Below are positions 4,377-59,576 of a stretch of 64,000 nucleotides of DNA, in pieces; the first letter of the stretch is position 1, and each line of letters begins with the position of its first letter. The notes beneath the pieces are model-generated. The model saw nothing but the letters and a program-made list of their open reading frames with translations. It did not search any database and was not told the DNA's origin. The position numbers and the translations under genes are program-made. Source of the DNA: a virus (Duplodnaviria; Caudoviricetes); the IMG/VR virus record IMGVR_UViG_3300025707_000003, positions 64,001 through 128,000 of that record; one strand, given 5' to 3'.

Positions 4377-4388
4377 TAGTTTATTTAT
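4377..4388 (+). promoter_or_regulatory. Class I motif plus cassette module
   Basis: Followed by GTGATCTTAAGTGATCTC...AATGGAGA. Confidence 0.75.
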
Positions 4389-4439
4389 GAGTGATCTTAA
4401 GTGATCTCTTTAACCACAAACTTGAATGGAGAAACCATT

Positions 4440-4769
4440 ATGAGAAGATCTGCAACCGAAGTTATTAATGACCTTGAGATGAGAATCGCAAGGCTTGAAA
4501 AAGAAGCAAAAGAAGCAAATGATCTTCTTTTTTCGATAAATGAGGATGAGTGGGCAATGCTTGCAGAACTGCACGAAAATTTATCGAGCCGCGGCCCTTT
4601 ACAAGATCTAAAGTCAGGTTTGCCAAGTCATGTTCAGAAAGATTTTTCTAAAGTCTTACAACGAGGTAAGAACGATTATGTTACAAAGGAACTTTTAAAT
4701 TACTCAAAGGCGGTACGAGCCGAGCAATCTAAGTTAAAAGATTCACTCGGCAATATTCTGGGTATCTAA
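4440..4769 (+). CDS. Leader-tagged hypothetical protein
   Basis: Begins MRRSATEVINDLEMRIARLE behind the conserved promoter-hairpin-RBS module. Confidence 0.8.
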   Translation: MRRSATEVINDLEMRIARLEKEAKEANDLLFSINEDEWAMLAELHENLSSRGPLQDLKSGLPSHVQKDFSKVLQRGKNDYVTKELLNYSKAVRAEQSKLKDSLGNILGI

Positions 4770-4782
4770 TAAGGTTTCTTCT

Positions 4783-5292
4783 TTAAGAGAGAGCCTTATA
4801 TAGCTTCTCCCATTGACGAACCTTTGAGTCCTCTATCGATGAGAGCATATTGAACACCTCCCAATAGCGTAAGGTGTCATCATAATCCTCTCTCCTAGAG
4901 GTTTTCTCGTTTAATAGACCCTCTACCCTACGCACAAGTATTTCTTTGCGTGTAGGGTCTTCATAGGTGTCCTCAAAGATGTCCTTCTTAGGTTCGTACT
5001 TCCACACCTCAAGCCCATACTTACGCTCTAAGGCTGTGCAAGCTCTACCAAAGTCGAGACCCTCTTTCTCCATAACCGTTGCGATGGAGTCTCGTACCTT
5101 ACCACAAGCGAAACAGAACCATGTGTTAGTCTCTGGGTAAACACGGGCAGAAGGTGCATTATCTGAACCATCTCCATGTAGATCACAACGGAACTGTTGT
5201 TGGTGATCTCGACCATGTACATCATAGTTGTAGGCACTCAAGACAGACAGGATGGGGATCTTTTCTTTAATCCTATCTGCTCTCTTGCTCAT
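4783..5292 (-). CDS. Stand-alone CHC2 zinc-finger (DnaG primase N-terminal-like) protein
   Basis: FRCDLHGD...SARVYPETNTWFCFACG...SIATVMEKEGLDF; no TOPRIM domain. Confidence 0.8.
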   Translation of the reverse strand: MSKRADRIKEKIPILSVLSAYNYDVHGRDHQQQFRCDLHGDGSDNAPSARVYPETNTWFCFACGKVRDSIATVMEKEGLDFGRACTALERKYGLEVWKYEPKKDIFEDTYEDPTRKEILVRRVEGLLNEKTSRREDYDDTLRYWEVFNMLSSIEDSKVRQWEKLYKALS

Positions 5293-5522
5293 TTCGCACC
5301 TTTTCTCATCACTCTTCTTAGTGTGCCGTAGCGTTCGTTACTCATACTTTTTATGATACAGTCACCCAACTTTAACTCGGTTGGTGGGGGTTTTTTATCT
5401 ACATAGATTGTGAGTTTATTTAACTCACAAATGTGAACCTCCACTATTCGTGTGGAGTTCAAAAAAATCATGTACCCCAATAACGCAATAAATGTGATTA
5501 GTCCTAGTGCGTCATAATTCAT
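5289..5522 (-). CDS. Small membrane-anchored hypothetical protein
   Basis: N-terminal hydrophobic stretch; RBS aggagaa; ATGA overlap with next gene. Confidence 0.6.
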   Translation of the reverse strand: MNYDALGLITFIALLGYMIFLNSTRIVEVHICELNKLTIYVDKKPPPTELKLGDCIIKSMSNERYGTLRRVMRKGAK

Positions 5523-5575
5523 CTCATTCTCCTTTTACTTCGTACTTCTTTAATCAGTTATATATTTTAGGTGAC

Positions 5576-5610
5576 AAAACACCCCGACTCTCCTAAGAGA
5601 AGCCGAAGTG
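5576..5610 (-). terminator. Rho-independent terminator-like hairpin
   Basis: cacttcggcttctc-ttag-gagagtcggggtg followed by TTTT on minus strand. Confidence 0.6.
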
Positions 5611-5815
5611 TCGGGCAAGTGAGCTGACCTCGCCAAGCATATCTGAGTCTGCGTAAAGCCCAATCGCGAGAAGAATCTCACATCCTGGCTCAACCCCCCC
5701 TTTTGGGATTGAACCTACGACATGAGGTCAGAATCACTCATATCGACCACTACCCAATCTAGGGAGGTTTACCTTTACAACAGCATAAAGGCTTTGTCGT
5801 GGGTTAGTGGTATCA
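5576..5815 (-). ncRNA. Candidate structured ncRNA with degenerate tRNA-like 5' domain (5693-5767)
   Basis: No ORF over 15 aa; class II motif upstream and terminator downstream; acceptor CCTCCCT/AGGGGGG, D-stem ATTG/CGAT, T-loop GGTTCAATCC; 10-nt anticodon loop, weak T-stem, no CCA. Confidence 0.4.
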
Positions 5816-5832
5816 CCCAACTGTATTATACA

Positions 5833-5848
5833 ATAAATAAGGGGTTAC
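5833..5848 (-). promoter_or_regulatory. Class II motif GTAACCCCTTATTTAT
   Basis: Followed by TG-TATAAT; upstream of ncRNA candidate. Confidence 0.65.
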
Positions 5849-5853
5849 AGTTA

Positions 5854-5865
5854 TAGTTTATTTAT
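5854..5865 (+). promoter_or_regulatory. Class I motif
   Basis: Exact consensus upstream of 5896. Confidence 0.7.
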
Positions 5866-8250: not shown

Positions 8251-8252
8251 CT

Positions 8253-10322: not shown

Positions 10323-10334
10323 TAGTCCTTTTAT
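10323..10334 (+). promoter_or_regulatory. Class I variant TAGTCCTTTTAT
   Basis: Upstream of HAD gene, partial cassette module. Confidence 0.6.
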
Positions 10335-10382
10335 AGCCTCTCCTTTGGTGATCTCATTAACCCGAACCAATGGAGAAAAACC

Positions 10383-11147
10383 ATGAGAGCAGTACACATC
10401 TACGATTTTGACGGGACTTTATTTAGAACTCCACAAAGACCAAACTGGTATGACAATAACTTGGATGGGGTTTGGCATCAAAACCCATTGAGTTTTGCAG
10501 AACCTTGTCTACCTAAAGGTGAGCGTTGGGTTAAGTCTATTGTTTCAGAAGCTAAGAGAAGCATCGCCTCAAAGGATGTTTACACCATCGTCCTTACAGG
10601 GCGTAAGACACCTTTTCAAAGAGTAGTTGAGGATCTTTTAAGATCAAAAGGATTAAAGTTTGATGAGGTCATCTTGAAAGACAGAGGAGATACTGAGTCT
10701 TTTAAAAACAGAGTAATAGATCGCCTTATGGCACTGTTTCCTGATGCAGAGATCCACATCTGGGAAGATAGACATAATCATTTAAAAGTATTCATGGATC
10801 ACATCGAGATGAGAGGTGGCGTTGGAATCCCTCACGCAGTACCGCAAAACTACTCGGTGGCTGAATGTTCTGAAGAGGAGTTTAGGGATATGAGAAGATC
10901 AGCATCAGAAACTATTAGAAATCTTGAGCATCGCATTGCTCGACTTGAGGGGTCTAGGACAGCTTCAAGCGATGTTCGTAGAGCTGGCAAGAAAGTTATT
11001 GAAGCAATAGACAAGCTACAGGAAGAGCTTGAGAAGATGCCTTCCTTCAACAGTGATGAGTCTTACTATGAGGATTTAAGAGAGCGTTTTGAGGCACTTC
11101 ACCTTAGCGTCCATAAAGAGGTTCAGTTCATCACAGGTGCTTACTAA
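10383..11147 (+). CDS. HAD-superfamily phosphatase (Swiss-Army-Knife RNA-repair-like HAD) with C-terminal leader-tagged module
   Basis: IYDFDGTLFRTP, VLTGRK, IWEDR motifs; internal MRRSASETIRNLEHRIARLE at ATG 10890 with its own RBS. Confidence 0.8.
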   Translation: MRAVHIYDFDGTLFRTPQRPNWYDNNLDGVWHQNPLSFAEPCLPKGERWVKSIVSEAKRSIASKDVYTIVLTGRKTPFQRVVEDLLRSKGLKFDEVILKDRGDTESFKNRVIDRLMALFPDAEIHIWEDRHNHLKVFMDHIEMRGGVGIPHAVPQNYSVAECSEEEFRDMRRSASETIRNLEHRIARLEGSRTASSDVRRAGKKVIEAIDKLQEELEKMPSFNSDESYYEDLRERFEALHLSVHKEVQFITGAY

Positions 11148-16552: not shown

Positions 16553-16564
16553 TAGTTTGTTTAT
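16553..16564 (+). promoter_or_regulatory. Class I variant TAGTTTGTTTAT
   Basis: Upstream of the head operon. Confidence 0.7.
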
Positions 16565-20261: not shown

Positions 20262-21707
20262 ATGGCATTTTTAAGATATGCTAGGGCTAATGTAGTACAG
20301 CCCTCTATTCATGGTCTACAATGGGATAAAGTTAGAATCGCTTCTGGTGATAAAACCATCAATGCCTCGCTCAAAAAGCAAGCTGAGGATATTCTAGGCG
20401 AACCTTTCACTCCCGATAGATTTCTACTTACACACTCCACAATCGTTTGTTCTGTCGATGCTTTCACGCCTCCTAATACAAAGACAGGCTCGATCACTGA
20501 GGGTGGGCAAACCATTAACCGTAAATATGCTGACTATCGTATAAGTTCAGATACAGATAAGTTCATCAATAACAACCTCGACTCATGGTCAAGGGAAGTG
20601 ATCAAGAAGTCTTATCCGACTTTCATTGGTGCTCATAACTTTGTTGAGCATATCCAAGTAGAAGAACTCTCAAAAGGTCGCATTATAGATGCAGTCCTTA
20701 GAGACATAGGTGAATCTCTATATGTAGACATCCTTGTCGCCACTGATCGTAAGCATGAAGACTTAGTAAAACAGATCGAGTCGGGTCAAATGAACGCAAT
20801 GTCTATGGGATGTAGCGTAGACTTTACCATTTGTACTAAATGTGGTCATGTAGCCGCTGATGAAACAGAGATGTGTTCTCATGTTAAATATGAGAAGGGC
20901 AATGTTTTCTATGATGAGCAAGGAAATCAGCATAGAGTAGCAGAGCTTTGTGGGCATGAAGATATTGGTGGCACAGCAGGTGTTACCTTCATTGAGGCTT
21001 CTTGGGTCGCAACTCCTGCATTTACAGGAGCTGTTGCTCGAAACACATTAGAGATACCCTCTGCTGATATGGCAAAATCTGCTTCGGATGTGGAACTAAA
21101 TGAAGTCCCCGAAAAGTGGATCGCCAAAGCCTCTAGCTTACAAAGTTCTCCTTGGTATGACCCTCATGGTCAACTAACTAAAAAGGCTGGCCCTTTTGAT
21201 ATGGATGAGGATGAAGAAGAAGGTGGAGGCGATGACGCTTCAACCCCTTCAGAGTCTTTGCTCAAACAATTAGAATCTGTGTATGAGACTGCTATTGTAG
21301 ATCGTTTTCGTAAAAAACTAGAGAACGAGATCAAAGCAGAAAAAGCTCAAGAAGTTATGAACCCCCCAATAGATAAATCTGTCGTTGAGCAAAATGATAC
21401 GATTATCAAAGAGGGAGTTTCTGCTTCTAAATATATGAGTCTCTTAGATGCTTCTGTTAAAACAGCTAAAACTGTTGAAGAAGCTGTCTTGAACATTACT
21501 TTGGTAAACAACCATTGTAAAGTTCATGTCCCGACCCATGTTTATAAGTTGGCTAGTGTTCTAGGTACAACAACACAATATAATAGTGTTGTTGATTATC
21601 TTGAGCAAGCCAACTACTTAAACGGTAAAAAATTATCGAAGCAAGACACTCTTCGTCTTGTAAGATTAGCTAAACTGTTATCCCTTAACACTTACGGGCA
21701 GAAATAA
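20262..21707 (+). CDS. Prohead (head maturation) protease with Zn-binding insert
   Basis: HNFVEH, MSMGCSVDFTICTKCG...CSH, FIEASWVATPAF match the HK97/assemblin-type protease pattern; directly upstream of scaffold and capsid genes. Confidence 0.75.
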   Translation: MAFLRYARANVVQPSIHGLQWDKVRIASGDKTINASLKKQAEDILGEPFTPDRFLLTHSTIVCSVDAFTPPNTKTGSITEGGQTINRKYADYRISSDTDKFINNNLDSWSREVIKKSYPTFIGAHNFVEHIQVEELSKGRIIDAVLRDIGESLYVDILVATDRKHEDLVKQIESGQMNAMSMGCSVDFTICTKCGHVAADETEMCSHVKYEKGNVFYDEQGNQHRVAELCGHEDIGGTAGVTFIEASWVATPAFTGAVARNTLEIPSADMAKSASDVELNEVPEKWIAKASSLQSSPWYDPHGQLTKKAGPFDMDEDEEEGGGDDASTPSESLLKQLESVYETAIVDRFRKKLENEIKAEKAQEVMNPPIDKSVVEQNDTIIKEGVSASKYMSLLDASVKTAKTVEEAVLNITLVNNHCKVHVPTHVYKLASVLGTTTQYNSVVDYLEQANYLNGKKLSKQDTLRLVRLAKLLSLNTYGQK

Positions 21708-23339: not shown

Positions 23340-23351
23340 TAGTTTATTTAT
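23340..23351 (+). promoter_or_regulatory. Class I motif
   Basis: Upstream of decoration and MCP genes. Confidence 0.75.
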
Positions 23352-24073: not shown

Positions 24074-24952
24074 ATGAGTAATACAGTTGATAATGCCGTA
24101 AAACAGAAGATCATTTCTGACTACATTAAGACTCCTCAAGGTCGTGCGAAGCTCGCCGCTTCAATGACTCAACCTTTACGCCTTCGTAGAGATTACACCT
24201 CTGTTGGTCGCAAGACTTTCTTAGTCGAGCAACTTCCAGACGGTGCTTTACCTATCTACGACAAAGACCCAGATGTTACTGCATTTGTGGTTGGTGAAGA
24301 GGGTGAAAACATTCTTGCAATCACCAAACCTCGTAGGGTTATCTTCCCTCTTTTCGAGATTGCTTCAAATCCTGAGATTCCTTTGACTCAAATCAAAGAG
24401 CGTAGATTTGACCTTATCGAGAGGGCACAAGATTTAGCTCGTGCTCAAATCCAAGCGGCTGAAGACGAGCGTGTATTCGCTATTCTTGACGCAGTTGCGG
24501 CAAACGGATTTGATTCAGTTGCAGGTCAAACTAACGCTGACCTTCCTGTTATCGCTCCTCTTAATGGTGCTGTTCTTGCTGACGCATTTAGCCTCATTGA
24601 GCGTCACGACCTTCGTGTTGCCCGTATCTTCATGAATGCTCGTGATTATGCTGACATCCGTAAGTTCGGTAGAGATATCCTCGACATCGAGAGCCAAGCG
24701 GCACTTCTCAAGACTGGTCTTCAGGCTACTCTTTGGGGTGCTCAGATCATCACTAGCCGTCTTGTTCCTGTTGGAACTGTTTATGTCTGCTGTGAGCCAG
24801 AAATGTTCGGTCGTATCCCTGTTCGTACAGAATTGACCGTTCTCTCTGCTGACGATCCAAAAGCTCGTACAATTGGTTTTTCAGTGTTCGAGAATTTGGG
24901 TATTGGTGCCTACAACCCTCGTGGTCTTGCTCGTCTTACAGTACAGCGTTAA
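24074..24952 (+). CDS. Major capsid protein (HK97 fold)
   Basis: 292 aa, strong codon bias, IKERRFDLIERAQDLARAQIQAAEDERVF spine helix, followed by strong terminator. Confidence 0.8.
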   Translation: MSNTVDNAVKQKIISDYIKTPQGRAKLAASMTQPLRLRRDYTSVGRKTFLVEQLPDGALPIYDKDPDVTAFVVGEEGENILAITKPRRVIFPLFEIASNPEIPLTQIKERRFDLIERAQDLARAQIQAAEDERVFAILDAVAANGFDSVAGQTNADLPVIAPLNGAVLADAFSLIERHDLRVARIFMNARDYADIRKFGRDILDIESQAALLKTGLQATLWGAQIITSRLVPVGTVYVCCEPEMFGRIPVRTELTVLSADDPKARTIGFSVFENLGIGAYNPRGLARLTVQR

Positions 24953-25135: not shown

Positions 25136-25621
25136 ATGAACAACAATTTTGTTCCAGTTCCCACAGTAATGGAAGCCATGACAGGTTTCCTCTGTAGTAA
25201 GGCTTTTCTTATCTATCTAATTATATTTGGTGTTCTATTTTTTATATGGCTTTTTATCAAAAAAGAGAGGAGAGAAGAAGCTGATCTCTATCGAGCATTA
25301 GTGAGAGAAGTGAGAGAAAACCAAAATCTTAAGCGAAGACTAGGACAGACACCAAATGAAGAGCAAGATGATATGTACTCCAACGAGGTACTCACCTCGT
25401 CATATGATTTATGCGAATCATATACCAAAGATATCAAATGGAGAAACGCAGGTCTCAGACATGATATAAAAATACTAAACATCGAGGATAAAGAGACACT
25501 ATTGAAAGCGAAGGCTCTACTTTTGTACTTAACTACCTCGGAGAAACAAACCCCACAATTTATTGAGGGTGTTCAGAAAACGCTCAAGGTTATTACGATC
25601 CTAGAAAAGAGTGTAAGATGA
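25136..25621 (+). CDS. Membrane-anchored hypothetical protein
   Basis: N-terminal TM FLIYLIIFGVLFFIWLFI. Confidence 0.65.
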   Translation: MNNNFVPVPTVMEAMTGFLCSKAFLIYLIIFGVLFFIWLFIKKERREEADLYRALVREVRENQNLKRRLGQTPNEEQDDMYSNEVLTSSYDLCESYTKDIKWRNAGLRHDIKILNIEDKETLLKAKALLLYLTTSEKQTPQFIEGVQKTLKVITILEKSVR

Positions 25622-26529
25622 GAGCGATACCATGCCCTATATCTAAAGAGCGTTTTGAAGACCTCTATACTAAACAATACTTAACAGAGAAGCAGATTAA
25701 CGAGTTGTTGATTTCTGAGGGTATTGACTCAAGCATGAAGCGTATTGGTAGTTGGAGACTACGCTATGGGATTGAAACGGTATCTAAGTTTGATCGTCTT
25801 GAGCTACCAAAGATTGAGGGGGAGTTAAGATCAATCCTTATTGGTTCTATGCTAGGTGACGGTCGTATTGTTTTTCGTACTAACGCTTCACACTATGAGG
25901 AACGACACGCACCCAATCAGAAAGAGTATCTTGAGTGGAAGCAAGAGAAGTGGGGCGTGTGGTCATCTGGAGATTTAGCAGTAGCGATGAGTAGGGAGTT
26001 CCCTAGTTATATCTTTCGCACCCACGCTCACCCTATGCTAAATGAGTATCGAGACTTGTTCTATGAGGAGAGGGATAAGGGGTGGAAAGTTGTTAAGTCT
26101 GATGTTATAGACCAAGTAGATGAGTTAGCTTTGGCTATGTGGTATCTCGATGATGGTCATGCAGGACATTGGCCTATGATTTGTTTTGGGGCAAAACAGG
26201 GGAGTCGAGCTAACGCTTACTTAATCTTTGAGAAGTTTGGTTTAGCCCCTAACTGGACACATAAAAAAGGGGAGACAGGAGAGTTCCACTTTAAGGGTGA
26301 GAACGCTTATCGTTTCATTGAGATCATTAAGCCTCATGTACCCGATTGTATGTCTTACAAGTTGGACTTTGGTTTTCAAGGTCGTAACAATGCTATCAAG
26401 AAAAAGATGGACAAAGGCATCTTAGAGGACTTAAGGAGTAAGGGGTGGGGTAAGCGTAGGATAGCTAGGTATCTTGATGTAGGGGCGAGTACAGTGGGTC
26501 GTTGGATGGTTAAGTTTGGAGTGGAGTGA
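25618..26529 (+). mobile_element. Free-standing LAGLIDADG homing endonuclease with terminal HTH
   Basis: ILIGSMLGDG and ALAMWYLDDG motifs. Confidence 0.85.
26474..26529 (+). repeat. Endonuclease 3'-end repeat, copy A
   Basis: 56 nt, 3 mismatches to 26942-26997; 34-nt core identical at 27583-27616. Confidence 0.95.
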
Positions 26530-26538
26530 GGACTTTGA

Positions 26539-26550
26539 TAGTTTATTTAT
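26539..26550 (+). promoter_or_regulatory. Class I motif plus cassette module
   Basis: Exact consensus. Confidence 0.75.
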
Positions 26551-26600
26551 AATAGATCTTAAGTGATCTCTTTAACCAAGAATCCAAATGGAGAAACATT

Positions 26601-26915
26601 ATGCGTAGATCAGCATCAGAAATCATCAATAACCTTGAGAATAGGGTTGCACGACTTGAATCAAGTTCTAACCCTCGTCAAGCTAAAGATGCTTATGATA
26701 TTTGGAGAAGGAAAGTAGATCAGTACATCATTAAGGAAATGCGGGTCACTTTTGAATACGAAACAAAAGACGGTGAACACTCCGAAGACTATATAAACAG
26801 TCTTTGGCAAGATGGAGTTAAGCCATCACGAGCCTCCAAAAATATCATGCAGAAATTTCAATGGTTAAAGTCAGCGGGTATGCTAAAGCATCATAAATAT
26901 TATGATGCTATTTGA
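26601..26915 (+). CDS. Leader-tagged hypothetical protein
   Basis: MRRSASEIINNLENRVARLE; full upstream module. Confidence 0.8.
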   Translation: MRRSASEIINNLENRVARLESSSNPRQAKDAYDIWRRKVDQYIIKEMRVTFEYETKDGEHSEDYINSLWQDGVKPSRASKNIMQKFQWLKSAGMLKHHKYYDAI

Positions 26916-26941
26916 ATGGTTATTGAAAGGGATCTAGGGAT

Positions 26942-26997
26942 TTGATGTAGGGGCGAGTACAGTGAGTCGTTGGATGGTTAAGTTTGGGGTGGATTGA
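26942..26997 (+). repeat. Endonuclease 3'-end repeat, copy B
   Basis: ttgatgtaggggcgagtacagtgagtcgttggatggttaagtttggggtggattga. Confidence 0.95.
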
Positions 26998-27001
26998 TTT
27001 G

Positions 27002-27013
27002 TAGTTTATTTAT
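27002..27013 (+). promoter_or_regulatory. Class I motif
   Basis: Exact consensus upstream of OMP-like gene. Confidence 0.75.
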
Positions 27014-27044
27014 TAGTGTCTATTATCCATAAAGGAGAGACACC

Positions 27045-27575
27045 ATGAGACTTACTATCGCTTTACTCTTATCTGTCTTGCTCACCTCTACGATTTCTCA
27101 CGCTGAAGAGAATAACTGGGAAGTGAGTCTAGGCACAACGCAAATGTTCATCGGTGGGTACGAAGAGGGTTCAATACCTGTACCTACGAACTCTGCCACA
27201 TTCATCTTATCTCGTAAGATGTATGAGAGCTTTGCATTATGGGTTGTGTTCAATCTACCTACCTCCTCTAACAAAAGGTTTACAGAGGAAGGTTTACTTG
27301 TAGAGTCTCAGACACCACCTAGTCTTATGCTAGGTGCGAGTTATGAGTTATTGGGCTATGAGATCTCCGACAAGAAATCTTTAGGTCTTGATGTTGGTGC
27401 TTCAGTCGGACACACGATTACGCTTAATGGTCAGTTCTTCCCTGTGGGTGCGTTTCGTTTGAAGTTCGTTAAAGACGAGGACAGCACTATGTATGCAGGG
27501 GTGACAACCTCACCATATAATCCAGATGGTGATTTGGTTTGGGGTTTGATCTATGGCATGGGGTATAGATTTTAA
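27045..27575 (+). CDS. Outer-membrane beta-barrel-like secreted protein
   Basis: Signal peptide ending SHA|EE, alternating beta strands, C-terminal beta-signal YGMGYRF. Confidence 0.6.
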   Translation: MRLTIALLLSVLLTSTISHAEENNWEVSLGTTQMFIGGYEEGSIPVPTNSATFILSRKMYESFALWVVFNLPTSSNKRFTEEGLLVESQTPPSLMLGASYELLGYEISDKKSLGLDVGASVGHTITLNGQFFPVGAFRLKFVKDEDSTMYAGVTTSPYNPDGDLVWGLIYGMGYRF

Positions 27576-27582
27576 TGTGAGT

Positions 27583-27616
27583 GCGAGTACAGTGGGTCGT
27601 TGGATGGTTAAGTTTG
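27583..27616 (+). repeat. Endonuclease 3'-end repeat, copy C
   Basis: gcgagtacagtgggtcgttggatggttaagtttg identical to 26485-26518. Confidence 0.95.
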
Positions 27617-27624
27617 AGGTTTTG

Positions 27625-27636
27625 TAGTTTCTTTAT
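27625..27636 (+). promoter_or_regulatory. Class I variant plus cassette module
   Basis: TAGTTTCTTTAT. Confidence 0.7.
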
Positions 27637-27684
27637 AATAGATCTTAAGTGATCTCTTTAACCTTAATCAAATGGAGAACCATT

Positions 27685-28164
27685 ATGAGAAGATCTGCAT
27701 CAGAAATCATTAATAACCTTGAGACTCGTATCGCAAGACTTGAAAGACAAGCATATCACCCTGATGACCCACGATCACAAGAGATGGGTGGTTATAGAGA
27801 GCCTGCGGGGGGAGAGTGGCATGAGCCTGAGATTCTTACTGGAAAAAAGTTTCTCAGGTGGTTACAAAATGATCGGGAGATCAAATCCCATTTAAATAAG
27901 AGCGTGTTTATAGATGTTTCTTCATCTACTATCACCTTTGACACATCTTGGTGGTCAAAATATACAAGAAATGGTAATACCTTGGATGGGATTCTATACA
28001 GCATTTGGGACAATCCTATGTTGGGGCGGGATTGGAAGATAAGAGGGAGAAATGTGACTATCAAGGGTTTGTGGGGAGACCTTGTGTACGGGGAGGGTGA
28101 TATTTATGCACAAGAAACCTTTACCATCAAGAAGAGTCGTGGTTCTATCGTTTTAAAGGCATAG
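27685..28164 (+). CDS. Leader-tagged hypothetical protein
   Basis: MRRSASEIINNLETRIARLE; full upstream module. Confidence 0.8.
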   Translation: MRRSASEIINNLETRIARLERQAYHPDDPRSQEMGGYREPAGGEWHEPEILTGKKFLRWLQNDREIKSHLNKSVFIDVSSSTITFDTSWWSKYTRNGNTLDGILYSIWDNPMLGRDWKIRGRNVTIKGLWGDLVYGEGDIYAQETFTIKKSRGSIVLKA

Positions 28165-28295
28165 TCTATCTGTGGCCTTAATTAAGTTATCATCTCTGAT
28201 GATGTTTTAAACAAAGATGAGAGACAAAAGGTTTACACTTAGCCACAAGTGGGGAGTTTTTGTTCCTAGTGGAAGATAGATTTGAATAAGTTTAA

Positions 28296-28307
28296 TAGTT
28301 TGTTTAT
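28296..28307 (+). promoter_or_regulatory. Class I variant
   Basis: TAGTTTGTTTAT upstream of lipoprotein. Confidence 0.7.
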
Positions 28308-28349
28308 ATACCTTTTCTTGAACACACTTAACAAAGAAGGATATTCATT

Positions 28350-28715
28350 ATGAGAAACTTACTCACAATCGCACTTATTGCTCTTACCTTTATTGCTTGC
28401 GACAAGGATAAAGAAGAAACCACACCTAACGATGGTGGTATGGAAGCTGGGGCTACCGCAGGATCAGAGGCAGGATCTGAAGCAGGAACTGAAGCAGGGT
28501 CTGATGCAGGAACTGAAGCAGGGACAGAAATGGACATGATGGTTATGGGTGGTTCTGAAGAGACTACAGACATGGAAATTACTGAAGGTGGTACTGAGTC
28601 TGATATGGGTATGGACGAAGCGGGTATGGAATCTACGGACATGGAAGTAGTTGAGGGTGGTTCAGATGAATCTACGGATATGGGATCTGATACCGAAGCT
28701 GGAACTGAGGGCTAG
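28350..28715 (+). CDS. Acidic low-complexity lipoprotein
   Basis: Lipobox FIA|C; AG(S/T)E repeats and TDM repeats. Confidence 0.7.
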   Translation: MRNLLTIALIALTFIACDKDKEETTPNDGGMEAGATAGSEAGSEAGTEAGSDAGTEAGTEMDMMVMGGSEETTDMEITEGGTESDMGMDEAGMESTDMEVVEGGSDESTDMGSDTEAGTEG

Positions 28716-28755
28716 TAGTCTTGCTCGTCTAAATGGTCTTTAAGATCTTAGAATG

Positions 28756-28787
28756 AACCTCATTTCCCTTTGGGATTTGGGGTTTTT
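28756..28787 (+). terminator. Terminator-like hairpin related to the MCP terminator
   Basis: aacctcatttccc-ttt-gggatttggggtt-ttt. Confidence 0.55.
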
Positions 28788-28794
28788 CCGTTTA

Positions 28795-28806
28795 TAGTTT
28801 GTTTAT
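28795..28806 (+). promoter_or_regulatory. Class I variant plus cassette module
   Basis: TAGTTTGTTTAT. Confidence 0.7.
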
Positions 28807-28856
28807 AAGTGATCTTAAGTGATCTCATTAACCTTAAACAAAATGGAGAAACCATT

Positions 28857-29291
28857 ATGAGAAGATCAGCATCAGAAATTATTAGAGGACTTGAGAATAG
28901 GGTTGCACGACTTGAAAGACAATCCTCAACCAACCGTAGGGCTAGAAAGTACGGGAAAGCGATCACAGACGCTGTTCGGATGCTTAAGAAAGAGGTGGGC
29001 GATGCAGATGCGTCTGAGATTGAAGTGGTGGTGGTAGAGCTAGTCCATTATAAATTTGAGGATCTGCTTAGAGAGATCGAGGACAGAGGTCCTAATGCTG
29101 AAGAGTACTATGAAAATGAAGTTGTAAATAAGTACCCAGCACTGGTCAAAGCAGGTATTCTATCCGCTGAAATATGGATACAACATCCCAAAATAATCCG
29201 AGACCGATACAGGTTGAAAAACTTAAAGGAAGTTAATCTCTTCGCTGAGTGCATTGGGTCAAGAAAATTGGCTGAGGGGCTCAGTTTCTGA
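28857..29291 (+). CDS. Leader-tagged hypothetical protein
   Basis: MRRSASEIIRGLENRVARLE; full upstream module. Confidence 0.8.
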   Translation: MRRSASEIIRGLENRVARLERQSSTNRRARKYGKAITDAVRMLKKEVGDADASEIEVVVVELVHYKFEDLLREIEDRGPNAEEYYENEVVNKYPALVKAGILSAEIWIQHPKIIRDRYRLKNLKEVNLFAECIGSRKLAEGLSF

Positions 29292-29358
29292 TCCCTATTT
29301 AATCTTACAAGATGGGGTCTAAGTTAAGGGATAAGATGCTGTTTGGGGTAGAGTGAGG

Positions 29359-30480
29359 TTAATGGTCGATCCCTTGTTCACATAAAGGACAAGTATCTCC
29401 AATCTCGCACCTAATAGTATCAAGCTCCTCTGTGAGCCTTTCTACCTCTTGTTCGGTGCAAGATATACGACTGAATAGATCAAAGCGTTCAGAAGCGATT
29501 CTGAGGTCTTTTTCGACTTGCGAATCTACATTAGGTAAGTCTACATTAAGTTGTGTGATTTGTAAGATGGTTTGATCTAATTGATTTCTTTTGTGCAAGA
29601 CCCGCTCAAGTGGTGCAGGGTCTTTCACCTCTACATCTGGGATAGGTGGGAATGAGGTTAAGCCAACCTCTACGATACCTTCCATGATCCTTAGTCTGTT
29701 CTTTTCTATACGAACACGCTCAAGGTCTTTAATCCCCATAAAGTCATGTGGGTTCACTTGTGGGAATTTTACATTTTGCAAGGTGGATACGAACTGTGTT
29801 TGAAACATAAAGATTTCTCTCTTTTCTTTGATTGCCCCTAGCTTTTTAACTCTTTCTTCAAGAGTCTTAATCGACCCCTCAAGTGTACTTATATGATTGA
29901 TCGTTTCCCCTACTTCGTCCAACTCGTTAAACTTAGGTAAACGATCCCGCTCAGATACTAAATCTTCATGCTTTACTTTAATGCGTTGATTAAGGTTCTT
30001 AGTTTCGTTCCTAGAGAGACTTGACGCTTTCTCTAGGGCTTCTATTGTCTTTACATCAGATAAAGCACTAGAGAGGACACTAGGTGGCATATCAAGCAAG
30101 AAGATTTGTTCAAACTGTCGAGCGATCTGAGGCCATACAGTTTTTCCATCGACATCTACCGAAACAATGTTCAAGTCATCAAGTTCATCGGGAGTTTTTG
30201 ACCCTACTTTATCTAACTTTTGTCCGTTGATCTCATATTTATTAACCCCTTTACCCTTTTCCCAAATTACCGAGTTGCCATCATCAAAGTTGATGGAGAC
30301 TTTTGATGACTTTTCACCTTGCCTTACATGAGAATATCCCCTTGCATTAGAGAAAGCACCTGCTATGGCTCTTGCACAAGCAGACTTACCTGTATTATTA
30401 GCCCCTGTAATAACAGTAAGACCTTTAACTTCAAAGTCAGCGTGTTTGATAGATTGGTAGTTTTCTATTTTGACTTGCAT
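29359..30480 (-). CDS. SbcC/Rad50 (gp46-like) ATPase, N-terminal half ending at the zinc hook
   Basis: IENYQS, GANNTGKS Walker A, Q-loop, coiled coil, terminal CPLC; no Walker B or signature motif. Confidence 0.8.
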   Translation of the reverse strand: MQVKIENYQSIKHADFEVKGLTVITGANNTGKSACARAIAGAFSNARGYSHVRQGEKSSKVSINFDDGNSVIWEKGKGVNKYEINGQKLDKVGSKTPDELDDLNIVSVDVDGKTVWPQIARQFEQIFLLDMPPSVLSSALSDVKTIEALEKASSLSRNETKNLNQRIKVKHEDLVSERDRLPKFNELDEVGETINHISTLEGSIKTLEERVKKLGAIKEKREIFMFQTQFVSTLQNVKFPQVNPHDFMGIKDLERVRIEKNRLRIMEGIVEVGLTSFPPIPDVEVKDPAPLERVLHKRNQLDQTILQITQLNVDLPNVDSQVEKDLRIASERFDLFSRISCTEQEVERLTEELDTIRCEIGDTCPLCEQGIDH

Positions 30481-30532
30481 GGTGTCTTGTCTCCCATTCC
30501 CTTTATATGAATGATACCGAGTTTAGGTTTTT

Positions 30533-30548: not shown

Positions 30549-30581
30549 ACCCTTATGTAACTCTTGAAAGGAGACTAAGAC

Positions 30582-41717: not shown

Positions 41718-42107
41718 TTACTTGTTGAAGTCAGTGCGAACACTACGAGGAATTAAAAGTACTTTGCGAAGAAGCAACTCAAGCTGACGAACTTCACCCC
41801 TACCTTCTCCTTCTACACAAAACAGCTCAAGCTCTGTTAGCCCATTAGAAGCAGTGAAACCAATGAAGTGCTTATAGTCATACTTTATCTCCCAATCGCC
41901 CTCTTCTGCAATTAAGATTTTATTAGACCAACTTTCGATGTAACTAGTGATGTCCTTAAAGTCTCCTCGCTTACGAACATAATAATCACCCTCTGAACCT
42001 TCGTGGATGTGACCCTCAAGCTCAAAAACAAGAGAGGAAGATTGTTTCTCAAGACGAGCGATTCTTAGCTCAAGTTCATTAATTATTTCTGATGCTGATC
42101 TTTTCAT
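41718..42107 (-). CDS. Leader-tagged hypothetical protein
   Basis: MKRSASEIINELELRIARLE; second gene of a leader-tagged pair. Confidence 0.8.
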   Translation of the reverse strand: MKRSASEIINELELRIARLEKQSSSLVFELEGHIHEGSEGDYYVRKRGDFKDITSYIESWSNKILIAEEGDWEIKYDYKHFIGFTASNGLTELELFCVEGEGRGEVRQLELLLRKVLLIPRSVRTDFNK

Positions 42108-42109: not shown

Positions 42110-42793
42110 TTACTTTAACCGTTCTGCTTCTAGGTTGTGATATTGAATAGCCTCTTCAAGAGCGTAAGCGACCCTAGACATTGAACCACTACTCGTTCTG
42201 AGCTTAGATTGTGAACCTCTACCCTCTAAGATTGGCTCTAAAATGTCAGATAACTTATTATAACCCACCGCTAAAACATAAGTAATGATAGAGAAAATAA
42301 CAGTAACACTCGCATATAAAAGCACACCACTCAGCAGGGGAGTCACTACAAAATAAATTTGTTGCAGTATCGCCACCAAAACTAATATCGCAGGAACTCC
42401 CTGAGTAAACTTTCTCAAAGCAACTTCAGAAGGGGACTGATCTCTAGCTAGTTTAAGTTCGGCAGTCGAAACTAGCATATCTAAAGCCAACCCAATACGA
42501 CCTTTCAAAGTCCTCTCCGTTTTCATGATATGATCTTCTAAGATTTGATACTCAGGATCATAATCGTAAATATACACTAGTTGCTTTGCAAGAGTGCTCG
42601 CCCCCTTCATGCTTCTAGTATTAGATACCTTTTTGAGTAAAGCAATAATCTCTCTCATGTAAGGTATCTTATCAAATAACTTTACGAGATTTCTCTTAAC
42701 TGAATCTAGGGAGTCACCCAAAAAAGCTTCTCTTTCAAGATGGGCGATTCTTATCTCAAGTTCATTAATGATTTCTGATGCTCTTCTTCTCAT
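42110..42793 (-). CDS. Leader-tagged protein with predicted TM segments
   Basis: MRRRASEIINELEIRIAHLE; long hydrophobic stretch GVPAILVLVAIL...YVLAVG. Confidence 0.8.
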   Translation of the reverse strand: MRRRASEIINELEIRIAHLEREAFLGDSLDSVKRNLVKLFDKIPYMREIIALLKKVSNTRSMKGASTLAKQLVYIYDYDPEYQILEDHIMKTERTLKGRIGLALDMLVSTAELKLARDQSPSEVALRKFTQGVPAILVLVAILQQIYFVVTPLLSGVLLYASVTVIFSIITYVLAVGYNKLSDILEPILEGRGSQSKLRTSSGSMSRVAYALEEAIQYHNLEAERLK

Positions 42794-42842
42794 TCTTTGT
42801 CTCCATTTTGGTTAAGGTTAAACAGGTCACTTATGACCAATT

Positions 42843-42854
42843 ATAAATAAACTA
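42843..42854 (-). promoter_or_regulatory. Class I motif plus variant cassette module
   Basis: Exact consensus; followed by GGTCA-TAAG-TGACC hairpin. Confidence 0.75.
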
Positions 42855-53444: not shown

Positions 53445-53479
53445 TGTGCCTCATTTTTATTTGAGAAAGGAGAGCGTTA

Positions 53480-54502
53480 ATGCTCGCGGAATACATTTGG
53501 ATAGATGGTGGAAACCCAACAGCTAGAGTTAGATCTAAGACCAAGTACATACACGACACGACACCAACCACCGTTGAGAGATTGCCTCTGTGGAACTTTG
53601 ATGGTTCATCTACAATGCAAGCGATCGGCAAATCCTCGGACTGTGTATTAAGACCAGTACGAATTGTCAATGACCCCATTAGAGGAGGGGACAATATCTT
53701 AGTTCTTTGTGAGGTAGAGACTGTTGATGGCGATAAGCACCCCTCTAATACAAGGTCTAAACTTGTTAAATCTCTTGAGTCTTTTAAAGGTCAAGGAGAA
53801 TGGGTTGCTTTTGAACAAGAGTATACTCTGTATAAAGGATCAAGACCTCTAGGATTCCCAAGTGAAAGAAGATTCCCAGCAGACCAAGGCCCATATTATT
53901 GTGGTGTTGGTGCAGATGAAGTATCTGGTAGACCTCTTGTAGAAAAGCACTTAGATATTTGTCTGCAAGCAGGATTGCCTATTACGGGTATTAATGCAGA
54001 AGTCATGCCTGGTCAATGGGAATACCAACTTGGCGGGCCGAACATAGACGCTTTAACAGCGAGTGATCATCTATGGATTTCTAGGTGGCTCTTGTATCGC
54101 ATTGGTGAGGACTTTGACATCACAGCAACTCTTGACCCTAAGCCTGTCGCTGGAGATTGGAATGGGGCGGGTATGCACACCAACTTCTCAACCAAAACCA
54201 TGAGACAAGAAGGTGGCATCGAGGAGATCAACCAAGCTGTTGAAAAGATGTCTCACAGGATTCAAGAACACCTTGATCGCTATGGGGCAGGTTATGAGAT
54301 CAGACTAACAGGTCACCACGAGACTTGTCGTTATGATGAGTTCAAGTGGGGTGTTTCAGATCGTACAGCTTCTGTTCGTATCCCTGTCGAAACGGATAAA
54401 AATGGTTGTGGCTATTTTGAAGACCGAAGACCTAACGCTAACGCAGATCCTTATCTTGTATGTGAAGCATTGATAAGAACGATCTCTGAAACTTGGGAGT
54501 AA
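53480..54502 (+). CDS. glnII: Glutamine synthetase type II
   Basis: AEYIWIDG, WNFDGSST, QGPYYCGVG, NAEVMPGQWEYQ, DWNGAGMHTNFST, RLTGHHET, YFEDRRP. Confidence 0.92.
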   Translation: MLAEYIWIDGGNPTARVRSKTKYIHDTTPTTVERLPLWNFDGSSTMQAIGKSSDCVLRPVRIVNDPIRGGDNILVLCEVETVDGDKHPSNTRSKLVKSLESFKGQGEWVAFEQEYTLYKGSRPLGFPSERRFPADQGPYYCGVGADEVSGRPLVEKHLDICLQAGLPITGINAEVMPGQWEYQLGGPNIDALTASDHLWISRWLLYRIGEDFDITATLDPKPVAGDWNGAGMHTNFSTKTMRQEGGIEEINQAVEKMSHRIQEHLDRYGAGYEIRLTGHHETCRYDEFKWGVSDRTASVRIPVETDKNGCGYFEDRRPNANADPYLVCEALIRTISETWE

Positions 54503-56299: not shown

Positions 56300-56650
56300 A
56301 TGGGAAACTTCTGGGTGAGACCCGATGGGCAGAACACTCTAAAGGGTGTAGAAGATGACCCTACCAATAAACCTGTACTACCTGCGTATCTGATTTTAGA
56401 GTTCTTGTCGAACGATAATCAGAAAGCGAGAGATGACTTTTTGAAACTACTTCCAGGAATGGGTGAAGAAGAACAGTATAGGCTACAAGAAATCTATGCT
56501 TTCAGCACTAAGCCAAAAGACTATCCTCAGATTATTGAGGACAAGTTTCAAAAGGCTATGACTCCTAGAGTCAACATGGGGAACAATCATCTCCCTAAAA
56601 CAGTAAACACATCATCTAACCAACGCACTAAACTTAGAGTGAACCAATAG
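56300..56650 (+). CDS. Hypothetical late protein
   Basis: ATG 56300 after gaggag; class I motif 56256. Confidence 0.6.
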   Translation: MGNFWVRPDGQNTLKGVEDDPTNKPVLPAYLILEFLSNDNQKARDDFLKLLPGMGEEEQYRLQEIYAFSTKPKDYPQIIEDKFQKAMTPRVNMGNNHLPKTVNTSSNQRTKLRVNQ

Positions 56651-56689
56651 CTACGACCTCTTTTAAAGAGACCGCAATGGAGAATAAAA

Positions 56690-57601
56690 ATGAGAAGACT
56701 AGCTTCGGAAATACTTAAAGATTTAGAACTAAGGGTAGCTCACCTTGAAAGTGGCTTTCAAGGTGAGTTGAGGAAATCTATTGAGGTTGTCATCGAAAAT
56801 ACTCCCTCAAATATAAGAATTGATCGAGTAGAGTTTCCCAGAACACAGGAAGAGTTTTTAGAGATAGAGGCAAATAATGTGCCCGTTATTTTTTACAACT
56901 GCCCACTTGGAACAAACATGGTCAACCGATTGGAACTGTTCAAGTCTGATTTTAATCCTATGGTAGAGTCTAGGCTTGCAGATAGGAATAAGAAAGACAT
57001 TGGTGGTTTGCTAGAGATTAGTCTCCAAGACCTCTTAAGATCAAACTTTGAGAGGGGTTCTCGATATGTAGGGAAGCACCGTCTGAATACGAGGGCTTTG
57101 AAAAAACTGCTAGGGGTTAATCTTTATGGTAAGGGTCAGATTTTAGAGGGTATGGGAATAAACTCTGCAAATATGTGGTGTGGACCTAAAGGGTGCGTCA
57201 CCCCCCTCCACCTTGATACAATCAACAACTTAGCATGGAATGTGTACGGGCAAAAGACATGGTTCTTGGTAAGTCCAGAGGATATGTACCACAAGGCTTA
57301 CTTAGAATCATTCAAAGAGCCTTATGAAGAGGACTATAAGGGTGATTGGACTAGGAACGATAATGGTCGATCTCCTACCTTTTCAAAGATGACAGAGAAC
57401 CCATTAAAGAGCTTTAATCATTTCCCTATGTCTAGGGGTATAAAGTTCCATAAGGTCGTGTTCAGAGAAAATGAAATGCTGTATCTTCCCGCTTATTGGG
57501 GACACTATGTTAATACTGACTCCGACTCTTTAATGATTAACCATTGGTACGATGAGGTGCCTATAATCCTTAGCTCAACAAGAGTGAAAGGCAATTTGTA
57601 G
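56690..57601 (+). CDS. Leader-tagged JmjC/cupin-8 2OG-Fe(II) oxygenase
   Basis: MRRLASEILKDLELRVAHLE; MWCGPKGCVTPLHLD...GQKTW...LYLPAYWGHYV (HxD...H intact). Confidence 0.85.
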   Translation: MRRLASEILKDLELRVAHLESGFQGELRKSIEVVIENTPSNIRIDRVEFPRTQEEFLEIEANNVPVIFYNCPLGTNMVNRLELFKSDFNPMVESRLADRNKKDIGGLLEISLQDLLRSNFERGSRYVGKHRLNTRALKKLLGVNLYGKGQILEGMGINSANMWCGPKGCVTPLHLDTINNLAWNVYGQKTWFLVSPEDMYHKAYLESFKEPYEEDYKGDWTRNDNGRSPTFSKMTENPLKSFNHFPMSRGIKFHKVVFRENEMLYLPAYWGHYVNTDSDSLMINHWYDEVPIILSSTRVKGNL

Positions 57602-57610
57602 TTCGTTTAT
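57599..57610 (+). promoter_or_regulatory. Class I variant
   Basis: TAGTTCGTTTAT overlapping JmjC TAG stop. Confidence 0.6.
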
Positions 57611-57649
57611 CGCTTCTCCATAGATGATCTACACAATGGAGAATAAAAA

Positions 57650-58000
57650 ATGGCTACAGAGAAATCACAAGACCCAACACAGCTTGATAAACTACCACTT
57701 AAGAGCAAGAAGTTCCTTGCTTATCTGATCGCAGACATCGGGTGGAAAATCCTTATGTTCTATGTGATTTGGGAGTATCAAACTAAGATTGAGCATTATG
57801 CGTTTATGGTTCTCGTCACTATGATCGTAACAAGCGGTTTTATACAGATCGGGTATATCTTAGGTCAAGCCGCTCTTGATAAGTACACTACAGTGGCTGT
57901 CTCGGCTCTTGAGAGAGATGGGGATAAACCTACCCCACCTAAACCAAAGGCTAAAGAAGAACCCGACCCTAATAGCACAGACCCTAACGAGTTCATGTAA
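57650..58000 (+). CDS. Two-TM membrane protein, holin-like
   Basis: Two hydrophobic segments and charged Pro-rich tail; class I motif 57599. Confidence 0.5.
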   Translation: MATEKSQDPTQLDKLPLKSKKFLAYLIADIGWKILMFYVIWEYQTKIEHYAFMVLVTMIVTSGFIQIGYILGQAALDKYTTVAVSALERDGDKPTPPKPKAKEEPDPNSTDPNEFM

Positions 58001-58012
58001 TAGTTTATTTAT
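58001..58012 (+). promoter_or_regulatory. Class I motif plus cassette module
   Basis: Exact consensus. Confidence 0.75.
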
Positions 58013-58059
58013 GAGTGATCTTAAGTGATCTCATTAACCTTAACAAAATGGAGAAAACC

Positions 58060-58728
58060 ATGAGAAGATCAGCAACCGAAGTTATTAAAAACCTTGAGCG
58101 TAGAATCGCAAGGCTCGAAGGAAATATAAACACTCGAAAGACCGCAAGGGGAGATGTCGCTATCGAGACCGCTTCCGAGCGAGACATACAGAAGGCTTGG
58201 CCTAGAGTCACCTATAAAGGCAAAAGCATCCACGCAGACTACAGCAAATGGACTAACTCGGTCGAGAGTTCAGAACTTAGCGAGTATACTGATATTGGTT
58301 TGACGGATGATCTGGGTAATTCTCTGGAAGTTGCAGAAGGTGGACAAGAGGTTTATCTTGGATACAACCAAGAAAAAGATTTCTTTGTGATGGGCTTTGA
58401 TATGAGTTTCTATTCACAAGTAACAGAAGATGAGTGGGATGCTCATGCTGATGCCATGTCCAAATATGAGGACGCAAAGTTTGAAGCGGAGGAATGGAAT
58501 GAGGATGAGCCTGAGCCTTGGGACTTTGAAGGATATAATGAGGACTTTGAGAATGTCGAAGATCCTCGTCATAATGGTCACAGAGGTTGGGCGGCAGTAC
58601 TTTTTAGGGTTGAGAATGGTCGGATTAAGACAGAAGACCCTAAGTTCGGTACTAGTCTTTTTTATGAGATGGATGTACACAAGGGACTTAAGCGTAAGTT
58701 TAATCTCGTTGACCTTCGATTGGGATAA
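58060..58728 (+). CDS. Leader-tagged acidic hypothetical protein
   Basis: MRRSATEVIKNLERRIARLE; full upstream module. Confidence 0.8.
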   Translation: MRRSATEVIKNLERRIARLEGNINTRKTARGDVAIETASERDIQKAWPRVTYKGKSIHADYSKWTNSVESSELSEYTDIGLTDDLGNSLEVAEGGQEVYLGYNQEKDFFVMGFDMSFYSQVTEDEWDAHADAMSKYEDAKFEAEEWNEDEPEPWDFEGYNEDFENVEDPRHNGHRGWAAVLFRVENGRIKTEDPKFGTSLFYEMDVHKGLKRKFNLVDLRLG

Positions 58729-58837
58729 ACCTACCCTCAAACTCTAATAATGTTAGTTATACTCGTTATTAAGTCATCTATTAAAGGTTAAATGACTTAC
58801 TCCTATATGAGTGAACCTCATATCTAGGAGTAAGAAC

Positions 58838-59044
58838 ATGAGTGCTAAATCCTTTGAAGAAGCCGTAAGAACAACTCAACCTGTCATTTATGTAGGAGTT
58901 GAGCGTCAAGAGGCTAAGGGCTTCAATAAAGTAGTCCTCATACAAGAGAATAAAGAAGGGCTACAGACAACCGAACACCACATGACAGGTGATGTCTCTG
59001 TTCAAATGGTGAATGGTGTCTTAAAGGTTTATGTGAAAAGCTAA
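58838..59044 (+). CDS. Hypothetical protein
   Basis: Start reassigned after aggag. Confidence 0.55.
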   Translation: MSAKSFEEAVRTTQPVIYVGVERQEAKGFNKVVLIQENKEGLQTTEHHMTGDVSVQMVNGVLKVYVKS

Positions 59045-59081
59045 AGCAGATCTGCCGCTATGTCAGATGTGTGTAAACTCA
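59041..59081 (-). repeat. Non-coding remnant of a phoH 3' end
   Basis: Reads SLH-T-SDIAADLL* vs phoH SLHKSERSTL-SDIAADLL*; five nt differences in the last 27 nt, all synonymous. Confidence 0.85.
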
Positions 59082-59516
59082 GATGTGTTCCTCAAGCATT
59101 GCAGGGAGACTCCAGATCTCGTCAGAGATTTTGCCTAACTTACGATCACGAAAGCAGAGTCTTTCCAACTTACTTGCGTCTGCGTGATCCATATCCTCAA
59201 GATCAGTTGTGTACACCCGATAAGAGACCTCAGAGACACCCTCATCATCACAGATGCTAAGATCATTATCGTCACAGATCTGTTTGACCCTAGACTCAAA
59301 CTCATTTTGTAGTTCATCCGCTTCCATAAAATAACGGTGTATGAGAGCATGACTCTCTTCCTCTGACCAAACATCATAAATCCACTCATCAGCATCGAAG
59401 TGTCTGTAAGCGTTGCGACTGAGACCAGCCTTCTTACCAGAGGATTTCGTCTTCTTTTCAAGTCTTGCAATTCTCATTTCAAGGTTATTAATGATTTCTG
59501 TTGCTGATTTTCTCAT
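59079..59516 (-). CDS. Leader-tagged hypothetical protein
   Basis: MRKSATEIINNLEMRIARLE; variant upstream module. Confidence 0.8.
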   Translation of the reverse strand: MRKSATEIINNLEMRIARLEKKTKSSGKKAGLSRNAYRHFDADEWIYDVWSEEESHALIHRYFMEADELQNEFESRVKQICDDNDLSICDDEGVSEVSYRVYTTDLEDMDHADASKLERLCFRDRKLGKISDEIWSLPAMLEEHI

Positions 59517-59564
59517 AAAGGTACTCCATAGGTTTGAGGTTAATAAGATCACTTAATAACGAGA

Positions 59565-59576
59565 ATAGATAAACTA
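59565..59576 (-). promoter_or_regulatory. Class I variant plus variant cassette module
   Basis: TAGTTTATCTAT overlapping phoH TAG stop. Confidence 0.7.

Follow-up and report, generated by a model that had tools for sequence, protein, structure and literature searches.

What is the stretch of about 125 bases that recurs, on both strands, ahead of unrelated genes in the phage DNA analyzed here, positions 64,001 to 128,000 of the IMG/VR record IMGVR_UViG_3300025707_000003 (64,000 nucleotides (nt) in all, hereinafter the window)? Small orphan genes are numerous in huge phages, and their acquisition, expression and deployment are poorly understood. Each full copy of the repeat consists of a predicted late promoter, an untranslated block, an unusual ribosome-binding site and the codons for a 20-residue tag, the leader. 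We conclude that the repeat is probably the conserved 5' end, or "head", of exchangeable late cassettes in a group of huge marine phages. The head is built of layers that are unequally conserved, the block is linked exclusively to the leader, and the cargo behind the head turns over between relatives.

The 16-mer GATCTTAAGTGATCTC from the head has five exact matches in the window, all on the plus strand (4393, 26555, 27641, 28811 and 58017), and nine matches with up to three mismatches, against 0.99 expected, a count equaled in none of 100 shuffled sequences. A profile of the block recovers all eight window heads (E-values from 1e-9 to 3e-6) as well as a partial copy before 10383 (E-value 1e-4). 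A six-frame search for the leader, MRRSASEIINNLExRIARLE, yields 12 copies in the window, eight of them with a full head; four copies, at 56690(+), 42107(-), 10890(+) and 674(-), had been overlooked in the first-pass annotation of this DNA. That annotation gave a consensus string for the region preceding the genes at 4440, 26601, 27685, 28857 and 58060, and direct reading of the DNA confirms it apart from two details: the gap after the promoter is 4 nt throughout these five main copies, rather than 4-6 nt, and the copy at 58060 lacks the CAT said to stand ahead of the ATG. The variants reported before 31095, 42793(-) and 59516(-) and the partial copy are likewise present. The full and partial heads are as follows.

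4377-4499, plus strand: head 1, with the predicted promoter at 4377-4388, the free spacer, the block and ATGGAG site up to 4439 and the leader codons at 4440-4499; gene 4440-4769
26539-26660, plus strand: head 2; gene 26601-26915; a 52-nt direct repeat of the LAGLIDADG gene end on either side
27625-27744, plus strand: head 3; gene 27685-28164
28795-28916, plus strand: head 4; gene 28857-29291
31034-31154, plus strand: head 5; gene 31095-31469; variant with the stem AGATTCT/GGAGTCT
58001-58119, plus strand: head 6; gene 58060-58728
42734-42854, minus strand: head 7; gene 42793-42110; variant with the stem GGTCA/TGACC
59457-59576, minus strand: head 8; gene 59516-59079; stemless variant; a 21-nt repeat of the phoH gene end on either side
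10330-10382, plus strand: partial head; degenerate promoter and block ahead of the reading frame 10383-11147

Relatives of these heads were gathered via the leader peptide, so that the choice introduced no bias on the non-coding part. The search produced 79 IMG/VR loci, none identical to the window; the promoter is present in 57 distinct heads, and 37 heads with the same type of untranslated region were aligned (A2). The spacing and ribosome-site counts given below are for 32 heads of class A. A further comparison is with G001, a complete viral contig of 375,691 bp that is syntenic with the window at about 80% nucleotide identity.

Across the 37 aligned heads, conservation rises and falls abruptly. 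The information content is 1.75 bits in the promoter, drops to 0.61 bits in the next 8-9 nt (the spacer), returns to 1.56 bits in the block ATAAGTGATCTC-WTTAACCYTAAC and 1.55 bits in the AATGGAGAA ribosome site, and drops again, to 0.78 bits, in the last bases ahead of the ATG. In the leader, codon positions 1 and 2 carry 1.54 bits and position 3 carries 0.90. Thus, the untranslated block, about 37 nt of the form ATAAGTGATCTC-WTTAACCYTAAC...AATGGAGAA, is conserved at the level of leader codon positions 1 and 2 and far above position 3. As judged from these alignments, selection acts on the bases of the block itself, both flanks and the synonymous sites of the leader having drifted. Conservation between drifted flanks argues against mere recent copying or blanket gene conversion, that is, against the explanation that the block is functionless in itself and is alike from copy to copy because it was copied or converted along with the leader. 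The cassettes do duplicate and recombine, as indicated by the 52-nt and 21-nt flanking repeats and by contig joints, and the block can be lost or half replaced (see below). Nevertheless, we consider this explanation very unlikely because the conservation is patchy at the single-base scale, because the spacer is fixed in length though free in sequence, and because conversion tracts would not skip the 8-9 nt between conserved stretches in dozens of copies.

The spacing within the head sets the two halves of the block apart. GTGATC is located 12 nt past the promoter end in 24 heads and 13 nt past it in eight (standard deviation 0.43), whereas the interval from GTGATC to GGAG varies between 18 and 28 nt; from TAACC to GGAG, the distance is 15-18 nt in 31 of the 32 heads and 11 nt in the remaining one. 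The first half of the block, CATAAGTGATCTC, is therefore tied to the promoter or to the transcript start, being located rigidly 12-13 nt past the promoter, and the second half, TTAACC-YTAAC, 15-18 nt ahead of AATGGAGAA, is loosely tied to the ribosome site. The ribosome site also goes with the tag: ATGGAG is found in 30 of the 32 class-A heads, but untagged late genes use AAGGAG-type sites and have ATGGAG in only 4 of 35 cases.

This arrangement brings up the possibility that the first half of the block acts on the DNA, as an operator or a second promoter element that is bound by a phage factor and sets the tagged-cargo genes apart. Rigid phasing to the promoter combined with loose spacing to the ribosome site would fit such a role, as would a plain conserved sequence that has no conserved fold, and CATAAGTGATC is the part that is retained in the most distant heads (L012, L019, L027 and L063). 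On the other hand, no candidate binding protein was identified, clear dyad or repeat symmetry of the site is confined to the GATC sublineage described below, and the same phasing would be expected if the block had to be located at the very 5' end of the mRNA. On balance, action on the DNA appears quite unlikely.

The block goes together with the leader. In the window, the block is present in all eight tagged genes with the promoter and in none of the 14 untagged ones (Fisher's exact test, p ~3e-6, calculated by hand); in G001, all 11 block matches are followed by the leader and none of the 35 untagged promoter genes has the block. The block profile, run over the window and the loci, gave 65 matches with a leader after them; the only significant matches that lack a normal leader are that of the HAD-leader fusion (10345-10375), one with a broken leader (L064) and one at a locus end. 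A scan of the whole viral collection with an exact pattern gave 13 matches within the phage group, 12 of them followed by the leader, the 13th belonging to a locus that ends just past ATGAGAAG, the leader's first codons; the other 82 are chance matches outside the group.

In the broken copy (L064:1966-2040), the class-A head is complete, but the leader behind it has a frame-shifting internal deletion (MKRSASDSNQE-stop); the whole looks like a decaying or empty cassette.

In contrast to the block, the promoter is not specific to tagged genes. The 12-mer TAGTTTATTTAT, with up to two mismatches, occurs 35 times in the window against 10.2 expected, always on the same strand as the start codon and 35-55 nt upstream of it (about 120 nt in one case). 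With at most one mismatch, it precedes 22 window genes, eight with the leader and 14 with neither leader nor block. About 60% of the genes served are thus untagged, among them those of two operons, one with the major head protein and the other with the prohead protease:

23340-23351, plus strand: promoter 12-mer only, ahead of the operon with the major head protein (24074-24952); no block, no leader
16553-16564, plus strand: promoter 12-mer only, ahead of the operon with the prohead protease (20262-21707); no block, no leader

Because TAGTTTATTTAT stands ahead of head-gene operons and untagged genes as well, its position and the genes it serves suggest that it is the general late promoter of the phage, and the proposal of the first-pass annotation that the promoter belongs to a special adaptor does not hold. 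No sigma-70 consensus fits the motif. At window positions 26000-32000, sigma-70-like sites are depleted (4, against 13.3 +/- 3.3 in shuffled sequences), and terminator-like sites are at the chance level (5 against 4.4). For 27560-29300, no public RNA run was listed. One RNA run contributed a single 213-nt contig, which lies within the untagged gene 27045-27575; contigs cannot reveal transcript starts.

Behind the head, the genes differ. The 12 window cargos show no pairwise similarity (all blastp E-values above 0.1), and the recognizable Pfam domains are different ones, namely cupin/JmjC and WGR in proteins where the domain follows the leader and HAD_SAK_1 where it precedes the internal leader at 10890. 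The first-pass annotation described one unit of promoter, untranslated region, ribosome site and tag that was placed ahead of unrelated genes on both strands, and this description stands; the competing scenario that it named, in which the cargo genes are diverged paralogs of one ancestral gene, finds no support at the sequence level. Three leaders lie outside the pattern of promoter, block and N-terminal tag, in addition to the internal one at 10890:

56690-56749, plus strand: leader of the cupin/JmjC protein 56690-57601, with a different untranslated region that lacks the late-promoter motif
42048-42107, minus strand: leader of gene 42107-41718, with no head of its own, translationally coupled (TAAccATG) to the upstream cassette
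615-674, minus strand: leader within the reading frame 1589-3, ahead of a WGR domain

The frame 10383-11147 (+) encodes the HAD_SAK_1 domain, then the internal leader (10890-10949), then 65 residues; in the frame 3-1589 (-), some 305 residues precede the leader and the WGR domain. With two leaders inside longer reading frames, the tag is not always N-terminal. The WGR fusion is kept in G001, with 86% identity, and the leader is internal there too.

Comparison of relatives, as proposed in the first-pass annotation, shows the same head before different cargo at orthologous sites. In L013 and L031, 1.5 kb of upstream sequence through the head (91% identity) and 440 bp downstream (99%) are shared, and the cargos between these flanks, of 199 and 185 residues, are unrelated. 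Every leader cassette of the window is located in a break of synteny with G001. Cassette 4440 is inserted exactly past the stop codon of the portal gene (2700-4376) and is absent at the orthologous site of G001; the site of 31095 is empty in G001; and 10 of the 12 window cargos have no homolog anywhere in that genome, whose own tagged genes number 28 and are for the most part mutually unrelated. At the G001 leader at 17121(-), the upstream region and head are homologous to those of 56690 and are followed by an unrelated cargo of 163 residues (window 56650-59584 compared with G001 17133-14932). The interval 25618-29358 of the window is an array of cassettes behind a LAGLIDADG endonuclease gene, where G001 holds one different cassette; the 52-nt repeat of the 3' end of this gene (96% identity) brackets cassette 26601. 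The public runs that contain window sequence are marine. One marine metagenome contig joins 26473 to 26942, skipping cassette 26601, with 23 letters common at the joint, and in population contigs, the cargo of head 4 is replaced between 28882 and 29356, that is, from the leader to the downstream flank. Joints that link head to head with short sides were treated as repeat or assembly effects and disregarded as evidence.

The first-pass annotation also described a hairpin in the spacer, with a structure kept while the sequence changes. On this view, the hairpin would be a functional part of the adaptor, kept through compensatory changes and acting in stability or regulation. The three stems quoted there do fold (-4.2 to -5.7 kcal/mol), and a local stem with energies in this range is found in seven of the eight window heads (z-scores of -2 to -4), with three different arm pairs. 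A fourth pair, GAGGTCA/TGATCTC, comes from L159, and GATC-type stems, in which the 5' GATCT is invariant, recur in L008, L021, L048 and L057; furthermore, a random spacer weakens the fold in all eight window copies (mean z -1.65, individual p 0.02-0.16). Against this, covariation, which the first-pass annotation expected, does not materialize. For its five pairs, 48.3% of the cells in the 37 heads are paired compared to 47.9% in shuffled alignments (255 of 500 shuffles as high), only two cells are changed on both sides, and sliding the 3' partner by -2 columns raises the pairing to 59%. No consensus structure emerges from RNAalifold, whether or not 90 nt of coding sequence are included, and no Rfam family reaches its gathering score anywhere in the window. 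About 25 of the 29 aligned relatives have no local stem and four carry the GATC type; the stems are weak, that of L055, the ortholog of the 31095 copy, reaching only -2.2 kcal/mol; and transcription may start downstream of the 5' arm. Most relatives have CTTCTC, CCCCCC or the like where the 5' arm would be, and the 3' arm GTGATC stays fixed. GTGATC is conserved as a sequence and not as a pairing partner. The hairpin neither defines nor conserves the head; it is a local variant and the least conserved part, and a structure maintained as a functional component is unlikely. On our reading, the free spacer occasionally comes to serve as a 5' arm, and one sublineage, common in this genome, pairs the spacer with the block.

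Pairing between the spacer and the ribosome site of the same head was considered and rejected for tagged heads, own pairs being no better than permuted ones (p 0.67; 0.96), even though four tagged relatives (L006, L074, L050 and L042) carry an arm against their own ribosome site and in a few relatives such arms are very strong (-10 to -18 kcal/mol). Untagged late genes present a separate picture. There, the first 14 nt past the promoter motif show complementarity to the ribosome site of the same gene, with a mean of -7.64 kcal/mol for own pairs, compared to -4.72 for shuffled arms and -5.24 for the sites of other genes, none of 2000 permutations over the 35 genes did as well, and some helices reach -21 kcal/mol. 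Examples are 11961-11911(-), 27014-27047 and 53445-53482 in the window and, in G001 (L080-L098), G001:67303-67347.

Several other interpretations of the block were dismissed. A coding extension started at GTG is incompatible with the frame to the ATG, which differs between copies, and an upstream reading frame from the ATG in AATGGAG varies in length and frame and has no ribosome site of its own. A Dam-type signal is not indicated by the count of GATC in the window, an unremarkable 373 against 391 expected. As a target of the neighboring LAGLIDADG endonuclease, the block would expose the phage's own DNA to cutting at many sites, and G001 has kept the endonuclease gene at the same position. A long-range helix CAUAAG:CUUAUG enclosing the start codon shows no covariation (p 0.45); in a helix of GUGAUCU with codons 3-5 (AGAUCA), both sides are near-invariant, and the block is retained ahead of Thr-variant leaders, in which the pairing is lost. 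A match by complementarity between GTGATC and the 3' tail of 16S rRNA, noted by eye, would arise by chance about once in 25 cases, and the order relative to GGAG is wrong for one continuous helix, so that it is a lead only.

Several observations weigh against the view of the head as a conserved functional unit. The block is missing in 8 of the 16 promoter-driven tagged genes of G001, so that a tagged gene can do without it. L003 and L005 are orthologs with cargos 96% identical, but L005 has a second TTAACC-like stretch in place of the first, CATAAGTGATC half of the block (positions 1440-1503); L005 keeps the gene, and so this half can be lost without gene loss. The heads are related by descent, so that their likeness is partly inheritance and the information values count sequences, not independent events. 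Most joints in the read data lie in repeats and may be assembly artefacts. The results would fit action of the block on the RNA as well as on the DNA. Finally, "promoter" and "late", the extent of the transcribed bases, and with them the late expression and packaging proposed in the first-pass annotation, are what we infer from the DNA.

With these points in mind, we still favor exchangeable late cassettes with a conserved 5' end, and the layers of the head suggest how they could operate. The general late promoter TAGTTTATTTAT would drive late transcription; 8-9 nt of free sequence and fixed length follow; next comes the tag-only untranslated block, its first half phased to the promoter and its second half near AATGGAGAA; and the 20 leader codons complete the head. 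Together with the weak ATGGAG site and the first codons, the block may form a common translation-initiation or regulatory region through which all tagged cargo would be made alike, and the conserved stretches could supply the homology for recombination that swaps cargo. The hairpin would not be the core of the unit but something for which one sublineage optionally uses the free spacer. One compact head thus appears to supply transcription, translation start and protein address, a natural "expression and delivery socket", and it would mark dozens of proteins per genome as likely virion cargo, possibly injected. More tentatively, the block may be the operator of a dedicated regulon, in which a phage factor or the ribosome recognizes CATAAGTGATCTC together with the odd AATGGAGAA site, CATAAGTGATCTC being read at a fixed position, either beside the late promoter or where the mRNA begins. 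If so, capsid-destined cargo would be dosed and timed apart from other late genes, and any gene placed behind the head would come immediately under that control. The layered conservation singles out the bases worth mutating, namely the promoter-phased CATAAGTGATC, the TTAACC repeat and the ATGGAG site.

Apart from the cassettes, the window, which is phage DNA, encodes a clamp loader, PhoH and a GroEL-like protein in addition to the portal, prohead protease and major head protein. Some restriction-type palindromes are strongly avoided: across the whole 64 kb, CCGG, ACGT and GCGC are each absent (38, 107 and 66 expected, respectively), and CGCG and GGCC occur 4 and 28 times against 52 and 62 expected. 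GATC is not avoided.

Some features of the head have parallels in known systems. The enhancer of T7 gene 10, UUAACUUUA(A) (PMC8748333, PMC9590205), is, like the second half of the block, an A/U-rich TTAAC-TTAA element a few bases upstream of a GGAGA-type ribosome site (TTAACCTTAAC-N3-7-AATGGAGAA here, TTAACTTTAA-GAA-GGAGAT in T7). The likeness is confined to this half and is no more than one of sequence and position; a general enhancer leaves the restriction to tagged genes unexplained. The T4 late genes e, soc, 49 and I-TevI have hairpins that sequester the ribosome site, and for e, soc and I-TevI, the late promoter adjoins the 5' strand of the inhibitory hairpin (PMC3014915). The untagged late genes described here are similar in carrying a gene-specific anti-ribosome-site arm right after the promoter, a comparison made at the DNA level that assumes the presence of the arm in late transcripts; in contrast, most tagged heads lack the arm, and the stems in the window pair with the block, not with the ribosome site.

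The closest parallels to the cassettes as such are the internal-protein (IP) loci of T-even phages, in which diverse proteins share only a capsid targeting sequence (CTS) (PMC3012670). Repeated regulatory motifs, to which shuffling of the IP genes has been attributed, go with these genes (Repoila et al. 1994, as cited in PMC2839356), and the IP elements, as summarized in PMC2839356, combine early promoters and AT-rich stem-loops and occur at only two small loci. Common to both systems are many unrelated small proteins under one short N-terminal tag, with diverse cargo that is thought to be adaptive, and the replacement of cargo at fixed loci between relatives (here L013/L031 and the window and G001). 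By the same analogy, the tagged proteins are putatively packaged and the tag cleaved by the prohead protease, as for T4 IPs; the leader contains LE motifs, and the prohead protease gene is present in the same window. Unlike the IP loci, the cassettes described here combine a late promoter with a plain-sequence, tag-specific untranslated block and are scattered over the genome: the 64-kb window alone has 12 leader copies, and G001 has 28. Their promoter, TAGTTTATTTAT rather than TATAAATA, and their tag are both unrelated to those of T4, so that the relationship is one of analogy only.

The promoter-early stem-loop cassettes (PeSLs) of T4-type phages, which mediate modular shuffling of orphan genes, consist of a sigma-70-like early promoter and an upstream G/C-rich terminator stem-loop, with no coding tag (PMC2839356, PMC4122927). 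As in PeSLs, short conserved non-coding modules flank orphan genes and are points of homologous exchange, and gain, loss and replacement between close relatives map to the module, the breaks here beginning at the head. The differences are that the head has a late promoter and no terminator component beyond chance, that its local stem is weak, located downstream of the promoter and not conserved, and that the repeat includes a downstream untranslated block and a coding leader. By analogy, then, the head appears to work like the IP loci and the PeSLs but belongs to neither family.

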